Source: Trichodesmium erythraeum IMS101
GTDB lineage: Bacteria > Cyanobacteriota > Cyanobacteriia > Cyanobacteriales > Microcoleaceae
Direction of reading: 5' to 3'
NCBI RefSeq assembly: GCF_000014265.1
Contig: NC_008312.1
Location: forward strand, 2,550,001-2,582,000
Length of the DNA: 32,000 nucleotides
Made by a program: the position numbers. This document shows positions 1 through 15,000 of this stretch, in pieces (position 1 is the first letter of the stretch; each line of letters opens with the position of its first letter).

Positions 1-3000
1 ATATTTTTGACTCTTAAATTCTTTGACAAGGTTAGGTCTTGACATTGTCATATCTGCCACAGCAGAAACAATAGGTTCACCTTGCCAATTATCATAACTA
101 AGCACTATTGCATCTACAGGTAAATTTGTATCAGTAAATATTGCCCAACCAGTTGCTAATAAATTATTAGCCCCAATAAATTCTAGCTTTTCAAAAGTAC
201 CTTCTACTTGTCTACTATTATTCGTGTCTATTAACTCTGGAATTTGATTAGTCTTGATTAAGCCAGGATCTAAAAAGCCTAATTCTGTTAAGTAATGCGC
301 CCGTTGTTTTATATATTCAAAATAGTAAGAATCAATTAGATTTTGACAGTTGTCATGAGTAAAATCAATTAGTAGTAAACAGCCTTTATATTTCAAAAAA
401 TCTTGTTTCCATAACTTCATCTTTTCTACACTATAGGTGAAATTATGTACTTGTATAACAGTTATTATACCAATAAACCAGCAAATAACTTTCGAGAATA
501 AACTTCTATTAATTAAAAAAGAATATTTTTTAATAGCATCTTCTCCCACAATTATCATTAAATGAATTATAGAGATAATAATGTATGTTGAAAATGTTGT
601 ATATCTTGATGAAAGAGCTTGATCTATACCAAGTGTTACTCGACCAAATGATGTAACTAAAGCACTAATAACTGTATATGAACCAAGCATAATCCAGCTA
701 ATAGTTTTATCTCGTAATTCATAGTCTTTAATATGCCATATTACATAAGAAAATAAACCAATAAATAGAATAATAATTACTGCGCCAAGAATAATTGAAT
801 TATTTAGAGGTTGTATACTACTACCAATTCCTAGAGAACTACCTAAAAATGCTAGAAAATATTGGAAAGTTTGATCTGGATATTGAAGTGATTCTAATGG
901 ACTAGGGTGAGATAATGGTTTTTGATAATCATGAAAGTAAAAGGTTATATTAGCTATAAATCCAATTATCCAAAACAGATATAAAATTATATTTTTCCTG
1001 ATCTCTGACCAAGATTTTAGTTTGACTAAAGCTAGTATTGGTAAAACTATTACCCAAGCTAATAAACCATTAGCATAAGAAAAAGTGCTGATGGTTGATA
1101 AGGCCATACAAATTAAAATTTTGGCTATATTATTTAGTGGAGAATAAGCAATTAATATACAGGTAGTAATGCAGACTATAGGAGTAAAAACGACTATTTG
1201 AATACCCCACAACCAATTTTCATATTGAACAGCAGAAAAGATGAATATATTAGATATTAATGCTATGGTTATACTTTTAATATGCGAACCAGATATTGTT
1301 AGTCTATTTAACAGATAAATATTTACAGAAACTATACAGGCTAGTAAAAATGTAACTAACATTTCATATCTAATATTCCATTTAGTGATCAATGCTAAGG
1401 TCAGAAAAATTAGCCGGGGAAAAAATTTTCTACTTTCATTATGTTGTGCTATTAAATCATTAAAAGATAGGGTTCCTTGATTGAATTTTTCAAAAATAGC
1501 AGAGATTTGCCATTGGTCTTGAATTGGTACATTAATACTATATTTAAGGATAAGAATTCCTAAAACTATAGCTGGAATTATTGCTAGACATAAACTGATG
1601 CCTAAAATTAATCTATAACTTAATTTATAATTATTTTTTTGCATATTTTTGTGGAGATTATATTTCAATACGCTTCAGTTAATATTTTTTTGGCAATTCT
1701 GTAACCTGAAAAGCTCATGATAAATTAGATACACAAACAATTCTGTCTACCTATTTAAAAAGCTAATAGCTAACAGCTAACAGTTATATGTTATATTAAT
1801 CTCTTACTGATTAGTAATCTAGATTCACTTTGCTTAAATCAAGCAAAAATATTCATCTCGCAAAACTAAAACTTAATGATGAAAAAGATTTTTTCTCTCC
1901 TCCGTCAAACAGTAATTATCTCTTTAATAACATTTGGATTCACAGAAGTTGTATTCAGAATTTACCACAAAATTAATCCTTCATTTATGTTTTATGACCC
2001 CTCATCTTATAATCGCTGGCGAGGAAAACCCTTGTCTACAGATTATGATTTTCAGTTAAATTCTAGGGGATTTAAAGATGTAGAATTTACCAAAGAAAAA
2101 GCAGAAGGTACATATAGAATTATTGGTATAGGTGATTCTTTTGCCTATGGAGGTATTCCCTACAAACATAATTTTTTAACTCTATTGGAGTCTAAACTAA
2201 ATCAGGATAGTCAGCAATCTATAGAATTAATTAATATGGGAATAATTGCTATTGGACCGAAAGATTATTTATCCCTATTTGTCAATGAAGGATTAGAGTT
2301 AAATCCTGATATGCTTTTGTTATCTTTTTATATTGGTAATGACTTTTCTGATAACTATAAATCAAAACAAGATAGGAAATTACTTACAGTTCAAAGTTCT
2401 TATGTTTTATCTTTCTTTGATTTTATGATTAAGGTGAATAGTAAGTTTGAAGGGAACCTCTATCATCATGGTATTGAATATCGAGAAGACTTACCTACTG
2501 TACCAGATGACTTTCATTTACAAGAGGCTAAAAATAGAAGTTATATTTTTATCAAAAATCTTGAAAAAACAGATTTTCTAGAACATTTTAATGATGCTTT
2601 TAGCGACTTATTAAAAATCAAGGAAATCTGCGATCGCCAAAATATTAATTTAGTCGTAGTCTTAATGCCTGATGAAGTACAAGTCATTAAACCACTCAGA
2701 GAAAAAGTAATTACTAATTACAATTTTTCTCCAGAACAATTTGATTTCCGACAACCTAATAAATTACTATCTCAAGAACTGAATAAATACAATATATCTC
2801 ATCTCGATCTTGTCGAAGAATTTGTTAATACTGGTTCCGAAACTGTTCTCTACAAACCCAATGATATTCATTGGAATATTGCTGGTAATAAATTAGCTGC
2901 AGAAGTAATATATAAGTATCTCTCTGGGAAAAAATTTCCCTAGTTTTCAGTAGATTATTTTATTCATTTTTACTATCTCCTAATTGATTTTCATTGGCAG

Positions 3001-12000: not shown

Positions 12001-15000
12001 TCGTAATGTACCTGTTTTGGATCTCCTACTAATACTGCCAAAAAATCTTTTTCTCTTTCTCTCACCTCTGCTGCTATTAATGTGATTAATTCTTCTGTAA
12101 TTTCCCATGCTTGATGCCAATTATTATTGATTGGTGGCTGAAAATTATACGGTACTAAACCCATAAAATATGCGTCTAATTTTTTTTTCTTTAGATTCAA
12201 ATCTACTTTTTTTACTACTTGCAAGATTCTGGAATTATTTACCAGCCAACCAGGTATTTTGTCTATAAATGAAACAACATAGCGATTACTTAGAGCTGGA
12301 ATTAAATCCTGAAAAGACATATCGACAACCAACTCTCCATTTTCATATATAAGAAATGGTCTATATTGACTATACTCCAGTTTTTTTGAGTTATTAATAA
12401 TATCATTTCCTATAAAAAAAGCTAACAATATAATATCTGGATTATAATCCCAAACCTGATGACGTAAAGTCAACAGTTCTTGCAAGGTGCTATAACCATG
12501 AACCCCAAAATTAATTACCTCAACTTTTCTATTAGCAATAGAGTCACATTTTGTCAATTTCTGTTCAATTATTGACCAAAAAGTTTTCTCTATTGGTACT
12601 TGAACCGCTTCAGCAAAAGAATCTCCTAATATAGCAATTCTTAATGTATTTTTTGGCTTAATTTTACTATATTCGCGGTCTCTTAAACCATCGCTATTAA
12701 TTTCTATATAAGCTTCCCCCTCCTCTCGCCACCAAGCAGTGAAACCCGGTTGTAATGCCCAACCACGATGAGGATCATGAGTATGAAATATGGTAGGTCT
12801 GTGGGGTTCGTTATTGTTGGCTTTTTTCAATCCTTCTATTTTTGCTACCCTTAATCCTATTTCTCCTGCCAAAATACCAGTTATTAAGGCTACAAATATT
12901 AATCCAATATTTATGAGTAAATTATTCAGTTTTTTCATTTTATAAAGGTTTACTAAGCAAGAAATTATTTTTCATATTGAGGACAAATTAAGTTACTGGA
13001 GAGTAGAAATTTATGGAAAAAAAAATGATTTACTTTATATACTAAAAGTTGAGTATTTGATATCTTTTTTTTGTTTTCTAAGACAATATATTTATGATTC
13101 AAAAAAAATTATACAAGGTTTTAAAATAGCAGCCTATAATTTGTGATAAAAAAACAATCATTAGATGCAATATACTCTACATAATTTGAATAGCAGTCTA
13201 AGTTTTTTTGACTTCAAATCTACTATTAACTACCTATACCTACAATTTTTTTTTAAAACCTCTGACATGACTTTTTTGCAATAATTTCTCCAGCTAATTT
13301 ATGCCCTGTAGCATTCCAATGTCCTGTACACATTGCTGTATTTTTAAACCCATGAAAACAAACTGGATTTTTCTCAATATAATCATCAAAAGGTTTGATT
13401 AAATCAATCACATAAAAATTATGAATTTCTCCTAAATTTTGCAGTCTTTTTGTGGGATACGACCAGTCTTGAATATCCATAATTTTCATATATCCTTCTC
13501 TCCATCCTTTATTGGAATGAATTTGCATAGGAGTCATCACTGTCGCCAACTGAAATTCTGCGCCTTTTTCCTGCACTTCTTTAGCCATAATTCCTATTAG
13601 TTCATCTGTAATTTTCCAAGCTTCTTGCCAAGCAAGATTTCGTGGTTCTCTAAAATTATTGGCTTGTAATTTTTCAAAGTGTCTAGCAGCATTTCTCTTT
13701 CTTTGATCTGTCTCTACTTTTTTGATTATTTGTAAAATTCTAACATTATTTATCAGCCAAGTCGGTAATTTATCAACCGTTGTTATCATATAACGATTTG
13801 CCTGACTAATAGTTAGCTCTCTAAAGGATAAATCTAACTCTAACTTATCATTTTTATAGATAAAAAAAGGTCGGTAATGATTATTTTCTAACTTTCGAGA
13901 ATTATCCGTAACATCATTACCAATAAAAAAAGCTAAAAGCACAATATCTGGCTGAAAATCCCAAACTTTTTCCCGGAGAGTTAATAATTGTTGGGCAGTT
14001 CCATAACCATCAACGCCAAAATTAATTACTTCTACTTTTTTATTTTTTAAATTCGTACATTTTTGCAATTCTTTTTGCATTACTCCTACAAAAGTTTGCT
14101 GATAAGAAACTTGGACAGCTGAAGTAAAAGAATCTCCAAGTACAGCTATTCGCAAAGTATTTTTTGGTTTAGCTTTAGTAATTTCTGGTCCTCTAATACC
14201 ATGACTATTAAACTCTAAATAAGCCTTTCCTTCACTCGTCCACCAGCCAGAAACATTTGCTCTATATTCCCAACCTCTAACCGGATGAGGAATGGTATGA
14301 AATGTGGGATAAAATTCTGCATGGGTACTTTCAGGCATTTTTTTTAATCCCTTTAAACCAGCAATTCTTACTGCTACTTCAGCCATCGCTATCCCTACAA
14401 ATAAACTGGCAAAAATCATGCCTATATTTACTGCCCAAGTTTTTAGCTTTATCATCCTCTTAGCTATAATTTTTTTTGTAATTTAATCATAAAAGTTGAA
14501 TAATATTCAGTCTATTCTGTTTTCAGCTATAAAGCTATCAGCTATTGTTTTTAATGCCTGATAATCAAGCTTTATTAATTTAGCAAAATAACACGAAAAT
14601 TTATATTCACACTAAAAATTTATATTCACACTATACCTGTCTTTTAGGCTATGCTTTAGTAAGCTATCAGCTATCAGCTAGAAGGAGTAATTACCATCCA
14701 AAAAGAATTAAAATATAATCAAGAAAGGATTAGATGCTTACTCAAACTTTAATGCTTGTCAGCATTTGGCTGTCAGCTATCAGCTATCAGCTATCAGCTA
14801 TCAGCTAGAAGGAGTAATTACCATCCAAAAAGAATTAAAATAAAATATAATCAAGAAAAGATTAGATGCTTACTCAAACTTTAACGCTTGTCAGCATAAA
14901 GTGCTGAATTTACATGCTTTATAAACATTTTGAAAAAATAGACAAGTGATATGTAGGTCTTGATAGTTTTTTGAAGGGGAAAAAGTATATTTAAGAATAC

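Follow-up and report, generated by a model that had tools for sequence, protein, structure and literature searches.

Background

Several bacterial systems pass an acyl group across the envelope to a secreted polymer by way of a tyrosine and an SGNH-type (Ser/Gly/Asn/His) protein. In the Dlt system a cytoplasmic acyl-adenylate enzyme, a microprotein of about 50 amino acids with an FxYxxF motif and an anchored outer SGNH protein are encoded in one operon, and an envelope polymer is the target (PMC12148441). DltX and bacterial MBOAT proteins have as their acyl shuttle an FxYxxF motif at an extracellular C-terminus (in PatA it reads FIYANF); its tyrosine is acylated and passes the group to the serine of an anchored SGNH partner, DltD or PatB, which modifies the polymer (PMC12148441). 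The MBOAT-SGNH systems PatA/PatB, AlgI/AlgJ/AlgX and WssH/WssI likewise have an anchored periplasmic SGNH protein that is fed by acyl-Tyr, and in OatA and OafA, where an AT3 domain is fused to the SGNH domain and acetyl-CoA is the donor, the acyl group crosses the membrane via acyl-Tyr to the outer SGNH domain. We describe here a 32,000 bp stretch of the chromosome of the cyanobacterium Trichodesmium erythraeum IMS101 (NC_008312.1, forward strand, positions 2,550,001 to 2,582,000; "the window", whose first letter is position 1 below) in which eight genes for anchored SGNH proteins (A, B1, C1, B2, C2, C3, C4 and C5) stand beside the genes sxtJ and sxtK. We put it at about an even chance that these eight proteins are the expanded SGNH arm of a Dlt/Pat-like relay that moves a group, probably carbamoyl, onto an extracytoplasmic glycan.

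The saxitoxin (sxt) gene cluster, the other relevant system, was reportedly described in 2008. Such clusters contain the consecutive genes sxtI (an O-carbamoyltransferase), sxtJ, sxtK and sxtL (GDSL lipase-like, 1278-1281 bp), with the sxtL accession directly after that of sxtK, and according to Moustafa et al. all four genes have their nearest relatives in Lyngbya sp. and/or T. erythraeum. For SxtL a role as decarbamoylase or carbamate hydrolase has been proposed, and SxtJ and SxtK have been proposed to assist SxtI; papers of 2025-26 still call these proteins hypothetical. Our literature searches found nothing that ties DltX or the acyl shuttle motif to SxtK, DUF5989 or carbamoyltransferases, and nothing on DUF5989 or on the Tery locus tags of this region.

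Results and discussion

A conserved carbamoyltransferase-SxtJ-SxtK-SGNH operon

The eight SGNH products fall into three classes, A (one protein), B (two) and C (five), and the separation made in a preliminary description of this DNA is real, since pairwise identities, BLASTP and hhalign agree on it. That description regarded the genes as a stand-alone system beside SxtJ and SxtK; they are instead the SGNH arm of a conserved operon. In a profile scan seeded on SxtK, which covered the closest 80 of 203 SxtK loci, all from distinct Oscillatoriales species, nearly all loci had the canonical order carbamoyltransferase (CT)-SxtJ-SxtK-C(1-2)-B-B. Microcoleus-type genomes have CT-SxtJ-SxtK-C-B-B with spacers of a few nucleotides, and the Lyngbya, Limnoraphis and Planktothrix types have CT-SxtJ-SxtK-C-C-B-B, often with a convergent A gene and a further SGNH gene, here called D-type, downstream. 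In Okeania, Dapis and Trichodesmium unrelated insertions have moved the CT gene 6-8 kb away, and there are amplified C genes together with fragments. The operon of Arthrospira platensis PCC 7345 (locus L041) reads CT-SxtJ-SxtK-B-B and has no C gene.

A metagenome scan seeded on distant B members (80 loci, 60 of them with a GC content above 0.55) found the same association far from the cyanobacteria. In high-GC contigs (GC 0.60-0.70, from soil) B is part of the order SxtJ-SxtK-CT-B or adjoins a divergent CT-SxtK-SxtJ group, in both cases without a C gene, and the SxtJ/SxtK/CT module was found in 10 of the 19 high-GC loci that had at least 2.5 kb of flanking sequence on each side. These gene orders indicate that the constant set is CT, SxtJ, SxtK and B, and the soil version together with the PCC 7345 operon points to B, not C, as the constant SGNH partner. 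Of the companions that had been envisaged for the array, SxtJ/DUF5989 is linked to B or C across genomes. Neither an MBOAT nor an AT3 gene was found in the window or, in six annotated loci, among the genes called over about 10 kb. The mfd, CNNM, NAD kinase and CobN genes that lie beyond the operon in the 80 genome loci reflect lineage synteny and were set aside as uninformative.

Three other kinds of genes were seen near these loci. The D-type gene encodes an anchored SGNH protein of 371-408 amino acids that scores up to 45 bits with the Pfam ALGX model and adjoins mfd (L174, 4585-5700, in the Trichodesmium metagenome-assembled genome (MAG) MAG_R01; L087, 2737-3939; L088, 8805-10004; L003, 17655-18881). 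In Lyngbya, Limnospira and Okeania it forms a pair with A, the two genes overlapping by 4 nucleotides in Limnospira. Its presence in MAG_R01 indicates that the Trichodesmium locus has a ninth paralog just outside the window. Microcoleus-type loci have, 3-5 kb upstream of CT and with NAD kinase in between, a gene for a protein of 522-550 amino acids with weak DUF1574/DltD/GDSL similarity in its C-terminal part (L005, 1581-3149, and 21 similar loci). In non-cyanobacterial loci, proteins of 674, 438 and 422 amino acids without Pfam matches are encoded beside B or CT-SxtJ-SxtK-B (L090, 2700-4724; L107, 9826-11139; L159, 8113-9378), and these could be further components of the module.

SxtK and SxtJ

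The sxtK gene (15356..15520, minus strand) encodes a single-pass microprotein of 54 amino acids and follows without a spacer on sxtJ (15521..15934, minus strand), which encodes a small multi-pass membrane protein of 137 amino acids. The earlier naming of the pair is secure, with 54.1 bits for SxtJ against Pfam PF19588 (cut-off 24.4 bits) and 91.7 bits for SxtK against the DUF5989 model PF19451 (cut-off 27 bits). The only hydrophobic helix of SxtK has the basic sequence RERKKY before it and a neutral tail after it, which by the positive-inside heuristic alone would place the N-terminus inside and the C-terminus outside. The tail ends in FIYTLF (codons 15359-15376). This C-terminus, APFIYTLF with the stop codon directly after it, is present in 85 of 85 genome copies, and all complete metagenome copies, over a GC range of about 31-70%, end in APFIY[TS][LI]F; the variants FIYTLF, FIYSLF and FIYTIF all fit FxYxxF. 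Across all loci 123 open reading frames (ORFs) end in F.Y..F at the C-terminus, 108 of which are SxtK and the other 15 antisense or junk. SxtK resembles DltX in its possible mode of action, not in family membership.

The core of SxtJ (P61, W71, F91, P97, G99, D108 and R112) is conserved across phyla. A catalytic histidine, considered by analogy with MBOAT proteins, was rejected, as the candidate His39 is conserved only in cyanobacterial copies.

Motifs and fold of the SGNH proteins

The Ser of block I, Gly of block II, Asn of block III and His of block V occur in SGNH order in all eight products, as does the large insertion that had been described between blocks III and V, which are 176-227 amino acids apart here versus 84 in E. 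coli TesA. Block I is GDSF or GDSY in A and C1-C5 and GGSV in B1 and B2, and its Ser is invariant in the family alignments; block V is GGHW, without an Asp, in C, DIHW in A and D-x3-H in B. In hhalign comparisons the C family blocks GDS, G and GND are in register with TesA, the Ser aligning with that of the TesA GDSLS motif, and the alignment of B block V with TesA has no statistical significance. We infer from the motif order that the Ser, Gly, Asn and His meet in one pocket.

Profile searches supported only part of the family relationships first proposed for the array, which named GDSL, AlgX/AlgJ and DltD proteins. The Pfam Lipase_GDSL model (PF00657, gathering cut-off 23.6 bits) is matched above its cut-off by C1 (24.7 bits), C2 (26.6), C3 (28.5) and C5 (27.6) and below it by C4 (20.5) and A (15.1), every hit spanning only the N-terminal half of the model; B1 and B2 do not hit it and are without any Pfam match. 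With the ALGX model (PF16822; 268 positions) A reaches 23.6 bits, under the cut-off of 26.5, in a match that spans positions 36-131. That cut-off is passed by many A orthologs and by the D-type paralog, and no B or C protein hits the model. The A family profile matches AlgJ (4o8v) with an E-value of 0.0027 and AlgX (7ula) with one of 0.23. The DltD model (PF04914) gave no hit for A, B or C at E≤1, weak DltD/DUF1574 similarity being confined to the unrelated 522-amino-acid neighbour of the Microcoleus-type loci, and no AT3 domain was detected in the Pfam scans. In UniRef, B1 is named an AlgX/AlgJ SGNH-like domain protein.

The classes are related to one another. A and C are homologous over their full length (BLASTP E 1e-19; hhalign probability 99.96%, E 6e-39), and B matches C by hhalign (95%, E 3e-8) over blocks I-III and the start of the insertion. 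C1, C2 and C3 are 65-77% identical to one another (C1 and C2 70%, C2 and C3 77%), C4 and C5 are 48% identical to each other and 40-45% to C1-3, and B1 and B2 are 41% identical. Judged by these alignments, C is GDSL-type, A is a full-length relative of C that is weakly AlgX/AlgJ-like, and B is a divergent SGNH-like family.

Predicted structures bear out the SGNH fold that had been proposed, with its three alpha/beta/alpha layers. The AlphaFold model of C5 has a pLDDT (predicted local distance difference test) of 91.7, and that of B2 a moderate 75.6; the additional residues of C5 are modelled as a beta-hairpin plus a long helical hairpin. Foldseek gave 71 PDB matches to C5 at E≤1e-3, and among the 50 listed nearly all are SGNH esterases. 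The top match for both proteins is CgnD (8a2n; E 9e-9 for C5 and 8e-5 for B2), followed by acetyl-xylan esterases (Axe2), TesA and other GDSL proteins, the B2 matches being weaker but consistent. CgnD, an SGNH-like esterase with slow leader-peptidase activity in the biosynthesis of crocagin, a peptide that is made by the ribosome and modified after translation (RiPP), shares with these models an SGNH-like core with extra elements. Unlike them it is soluble, and at 10-11% identity to C5 and B2 it is not detectable by sequence (PDB sequence searches with single proteins and family profiles gave nothing significant for B or C); this low identity makes CgnD a fold neighbour, not a functional guide.

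Membrane anchors and topology

Each product has, as first described, a single anchor: one strongly hydrophobic segment lies within residues 7-34, with none further on. More positive charge lies on the N-terminal than on the C-terminal side of the anchor in 93% of the B family, 91% of the C family and 100% of the A family, and 111 distant B representatives show this bias in 94% of cases. The B family and the C family each have four conserved Cys. The positive-inside rule, these Cys and the carbohydrate-binding fusions described below support the view that A, B and C are single-pass N-in/C-out proteins whose SGNH domains are extracytoplasmic. Near the outer end of the anchor helix a Glu is invariant in A (E24), C (E26) and B (E29), and an Arg lies four residues past it in A (E24/R28, both invariant) and in C. 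The invariance of this Glu argues that the helix does more than tether the protein, and by analogy with the contact reported between DltD and DltX it suggests an intramembrane partner.

The B family and its association with glycans

Searched with a B family profile, 1.84 billion representative proteins yielded 4,096 clusters at E≤1e-3 and 1,810 at E≤1e-30. Across diverse members that are only 25-40% identical, the anchor Glu, the Ser of GxS, the G and N of DGFNE and the D and H of D-x3-H are invariant. About ten of the top 150 representatives are fusions of 650-675 amino acids; of nine scanned, seven match the carbohydrate-binding module CBM_4_9, two of them above the Pfam cut-off. The layout of the fusions (transmembrane segment, CBM_4_9, transmembrane segment, basic loop, B anchor, B domain) places the B domain and the carbohydrate-binding module together on one side of the membrane, the outside.

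The neighbourhoods of distant B genes point in the same direction. A Chloroflexota homolog comes after GT2, GT4 and two sulfotransferase genes, and another lies amid two PMT_2 (GT-C) genes and genes for a GT2, a nucleotidyltransferase, an epimerase, an arylsulfotransferase, a sulfatase and a C-like GDSL protein. In the metagenome loci GT2 is the commonest neighbour within 7 kb (6 of 72), and GT4, GDP-mannose dehydratase and methyltransferase genes also occur. The link to polysaccharides supposed in the preliminary description is thus supported by the CBM_4_9 fusions and by the GT2, GT4, PMT_2 and sulfotransferase neighbours of B homologs.

Organization of the array

The eight genes are intact ORFs whose ends agree exactly with those first given, and the ten proteins from A to SxtJ correspond to ABG50946-ABG50955. 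A (Tery_1675; 1876..2943) is on the plus strand and all the others are on the minus strand. A encodes an anchored protein of 355 amino acids with GDS at 86-88, GND at 154-156 and DIHW at 330-333. It is convergent with B1 (Tery_1676; 2960..4372), only 16 nucleotides away, which encodes an anchored B-family protein of 470 amino acids with GGS at 139-141, DGFNE at 207 and CCHY at 434. C1 (5069..6322; an anchored GDSL-type protein of 417 amino acids) is flanked by B1 and by B2 (6828..8183), an anchored B-family protein of 451 amino acids that is 100% identical to Tery_1678 and has E29, in the anchor, and S129, N203, D420 and H424 as invariant residues. Beyond B2 lie C2 (8466..9689; 407 amino acids, with AAND in block III), C3 (10492..11721; 409 amino acids), C4 (11721..12938; 405 amino acids) and C5 (13253..14455; 400 amino acids), the first SGNH gene after sxtK, which has S109, G147, N180, H379 and four conserved Cys. 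C1, C2 and C3 are of one subtype, Cb, and C4 and C5 of another, Ca. The overlap for which translational coupling of C4 and C3 had been proposed can be read directly in the DNA, where the C4 stop and the C3 start share one base (TAATG). The relic that had been noted is also genuine. It lies between C2 and C3, at 10047..10137 (minus strand), and covers the block I region of a Cb-type gene; tblastn matches it to C1 residues 117-146 (E 2e-8), and across 90 nucleotides its DNA identity to C1 and C2 is 85%.

The array is less compact than had been stated. It was called almost entirely coding, which overstates the case: the ORF coordinates make 79% of positions 1876-14455 coding, and apart from the C4/C3 overlap and the short B1/A gap the spacers are 282-900 nucleotides long. 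Scans for promoters and terminators found no enrichment over shuffled sequence and so say nothing about operon structure, and an Rfam scan of the window found no RNA family. Antisense ORFs on the plus strand lie inside B1 (3953-4123), C1 (5797-5973) and C2 (9185-9361) and recur in orthologous loci, one of them ending in F.Y..F; they were rejected as genes, being mirror images of conserved coding sequence.

History of the array

The alternation B1-C1/B2-C2 had been read as the duplication of an ancient two-gene cassette, and this does not hold. Comparison with Lyngbya PCC 8106 gives four ancient orthologous groups: Ca (C5 and C4, with Lyn_402; C4 is 51% identical to it), Cb (C1, C2 and C3, with Lyn_417), B2-type (with Lyn_445a) and B1-type (with Lyn_445b, to which B1 is 52% identical); A corresponds to Lyn_358. 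B1 and B2 have their own orthologs in Lyngbya, Dapis and other genera, and C1, C2 and C3 all go back to a single Lyngbya gene. When the window DNA is compared with itself, similarity is confined to the C coding regions, B1 and B2 matching at just 67% over 408 nucleotides. Neighbour-joining trees place Okeania or Dapis orthologs beside C1, C2, C3 and C5 and beside B1 or B2; the neighbour of C3 is from Okeania hirsuta, and the Okeania ortholog of C1 occupies the equivalent position. The separate B orthologs, the restriction of DNA similarity to C and the trees together argue that no B-C cassette was duplicated. On this sequence evidence the ancestral order is SxtJ-SxtK-Ca-Cb-B-B, and duplications of single C genes followed in the Trichodesmium/Okeania lineage, where the copies have persisted. 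Okeania SIO1I7 has the identical order C-C-B-C-B-A. The orthologs in Okeania and Dapis imply that the paralogs have been kept since before those genera split, and identical or near-identical copies of the array recur in many Trichodesmium field MAGs.

A possible tyrosine-shuttle relay

The module consists of a cytoplasmic O-carbamoyltransferase of the NodU/CmcH/SxtI type, SxtJ, SxtK and SGNH proteins, and would work as follows. An activated group, most likely carbamoyl, would be loaded on Tyr51 in the outward C-terminal tail of SxtK, handed from there to the Ser of an anchored SGNH protein, and moved by the latter to hydroxyls of an extracytoplasmic glycan, which may be a polysaccharide of the sheath, slime or envelope. 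Acceptor or position would vary among the paralogs, or some may act as removing (editing) esterases. Carbamoyl is the likeliest group because the carbamoyltransferase is obligatory, and the SxtK motif likewise suggests carbamoyl rather than acetyl as the group moved. Aryl carbamates are the classic carbamoylating agents of active-site serines. What the analysis shows is the paralogy, the fold, the motifs, the topology by heuristics, the association of the genes across phyla and the fusions to carbohydrate-binding modules; we infer the identity of the group, the loading of the Tyr, the membrane crossing with its role for SxtJ, the acceptor, and transfer as opposed to hydrolysis. That the SGNH proteins edit an extracytoplasmic polymer is supported, though not proven, by independent lines of evidence.

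The locus compares with the described systems as follows. It shares with Dlt a cytoplasmic enzyme, a microprotein of about 50 amino acids that ends in FxYxxF and an anchored outer SGNH protein, but it has no MBOAT protein (DltB) and no carrier protein, its donor enzyme would be a carbamoyltransferase and its membrane partner SxtJ, and up to eight SGNH paralogs take the place of the one in Dlt. The FIYTLF of SxtK is close to the FIYANF of PatA; unlike in the MBOAT-SGNH pairs, the motif is on a free-standing microprotein, no MBOAT gene is seen nearby, and A and C have the canonical SGNH block order plus a helical insertion of about 100 amino acids. AT3, the fused partner in OatA and OafA, was not detected here. 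The likeness to the sxtI-J-K-L block extends to the same four gene types in the same order (SxtL has about 426 amino acids), and its relatives are in Lyngbya PCC 8106 and T. erythraeum; the native operon differs in that it adds two B genes, has A and D nearby and lies outside any toxin cluster, and in Trichodesmium the C genes are amplified and CT is displaced. By its position after SxtK, its similar size, its GDSL type and the published phylogeny, C is of the SxtL type. The proteins have known folds, and the whole is best called a variant of the tyrosine-shuttle/SGNH acylation systems. It is possible, though we hold this only tentatively and think it rather doubtful, that CT, SxtJ, SxtK and anchored SGNH proteins constitute a third trans-envelope group-transfer machine beside MBOAT-SGNH and AT3-SGNH, with carbamoyl moving via the SxtK Tyr.

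A number of findings weigh against such a relay. A cytoplasmic carbamoyltransferase cannot directly reach a periplasmic Tyr, and the loading step has no supported mechanism; SxtJ is far smaller than an MBOAT protein, and none of its His is invariant. At E≤1 the Pfam DltX model gives no match to SxtK, the link between the two being a six-residue motif, architecture and operon context. About half of the distant B genes have no CT, SxtJ or SxtK nearby, and no alternative ORF ending in FxYxxF was found near B genes that are without SxtK. The immediate flanks of the module differ between loci, and in saxitoxin clusters the homologous block acts on a small molecule. Structures of DltD, PatB and AlgX are absent from the 50 fold matches listed, and the closest fold, CgnD, is a peptidase-like esterase. 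In T. erythraeum itself no CT was found in the window, where tblastn with the Lyngbya enzyme gave nothing even at E 20, nor in the 10 kb to the left of it in the near-identical MAG_R01, which contain a membrane protein (603 amino acids), an ORF of 206 amino acids, the D-type paralog and mfd. A review reports that SxtI is most similar to a T. erythraeum carbamoyltransferase, which indicates that this genome has a CT elsewhere.

Alternatively, the proteins could be purely extracytoplasmic hydrolases (esterases, decarbamoylases or lipases) whose task is the trimming or recycling of groups on scavenged substrates or on polymers of the envelope, with no relay through SxtK. We regard this as unlikely, although the nearest fold matches (Axe2, TesA, acetyl-xylan esterases and CgnD) are esterases, SxtL has been proposed as a carbamate hydrolase, many B genes occur without CT, SxtJ and SxtK, and the C proteins lack the Asp of block V; it leaves unexplained the tight operon coupling of SxtK with SGNH genes across phyla, the invariant FxYxxF tail of SxtK and the invariant Glu in otherwise passive anchors. 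The tailoring of a secreted small-molecule natural product, as by sxtI-J-K-L for saxitoxin, with SGNH paralogs diversifying or deprotecting congeners outside the cytoplasm, seems to us decidedly unlikely. No nonribosomal peptide synthetase, polyketide synthase or RiPP precursor is among the neighbourhoods listed, recurrent neighbours and fusions are carbohydrate-related, and the module is a conserved chromosomal locus across the Oscillatoriales and not a sporadic cluster; the homologous sxt block with its closest relatives in Lyngbya and Trichodesmium, CgnD as a natural-product enzyme whose cluster also has a carbamoyltransferase, and the variation of flanking genes between loci speak for it.

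The preliminary description itself favoured the editing of a polymer with O-acetyl (acyl) groups, for which an unlinked MBOAT or AT3 protein would be the donor and SxtJ, SxtK and CT mere neighbours. The AlgX/AlgJ-type signatures of A and its D-type partner agree with this, as does the D-A pair that stands alone next to mfd in Limnospira, but we consider it improbable given that neither donor gene was found in the loci and distances covered above, and that B or C is repeatedly linked to CT-SxtJ-SxtK in organisms whose GC content ranges from about 31% to 70%. Finally, in a genome rich in non-coding sequence and transposons the array might be largely redundant, decaying duplicated DNA. Its large spacers and relic fragment, the transposase debris in the window and the displaced CT could be so explained; the eight intact ORFs with their catalytic residues, the Okeania and Dapis orthologs and the field MAG copies could hardly be, and we think decay most improbable.

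Flanking genes and the rest of the window

To the left of A and divergent from it, a gene cut by the window edge (1..1644, minus strand; 548 amino acids seen) encodes a multi-pass membrane protein with about nine hydrophobic segments and a soluble C-terminal region. It is 81% identical to an Okeania protein of 599 amino acids that likewise adjoins the A ortholog, and the same arrangement is found in MAG_R01. The label GT-C-like that it had been given is not supported: neither the window protein nor the complete Okeania ortholog has a Pfam match at E 10, and BLASTP found no similarity to two PMT_2 proteins.

The 900-nucleotide spacer between C5 and sxtK contains, at 14591-14897, 1.8 copies of a 132-nucleotide unit (93% match) that includes 5.6 copies of GCTATCA, and a separate 19-nucleotide tandem repeat lies at 14591-14633. 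Divergent from sxtJ is a class 3 lipase gene (16422-17252, plus strand; Pfam Lipase_3, 94.7 bits), which was not seen as a conserved neighbour in other loci. The GC content rises from about 0.30 in the array to 0.38-0.41 at 19000-21000, where there is a gene for a class I fructose-bisphosphate aldolase (19432-20484; Pfam Glycolytic, 441 bits). From 21000 to 30700 the window contains transposase debris, namely HTH_Tnp_4 (22077-22577), a split IS630-type gene (28065-28791), DDE_Tnp_1 fragments (29163-30022) and several short related ORFs, and this debris may explain why CT is no longer adjacent. Between transposase fragments lies a leucine carboxyl methyltransferase-like (LCM) gene (24511-25359, minus strand).

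Conclusions

The comparisons define B as a large, divergent SGNH-like family that has no Pfam model and most of whose members are annotated as hypothetical. The module to which it belongs is widespread and unstudied, and part of the saxitoxin gene cluster was borrowed from it. On the tentative reading of the module as a third transfer machine, SxtJ, SxtK and SxtL of saxitoxin producers would not be accessory proteins or a "decarbamoylase" but a relay in the membrane by which carbamoylation is carried out or edited on its outer face. With its FxYxxF tail and its constant association with anchored SGNH proteins, SxtK makes the question of SxtJ/K/L function experimentally specific. If the relay is real, the tyrosine-shuttle logic of D-alanylation and O-acetylation would extend to a system free of MBOAT and AT3 proteins, probably with carbamoyl. 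This points to an unrecognised modification of a surface polymer in Trichodesmium and other mat- and bloom-forming Oscillatoriales, in which the chemistry of sheath and slime affects gliding, colony formation and interactions with particles.

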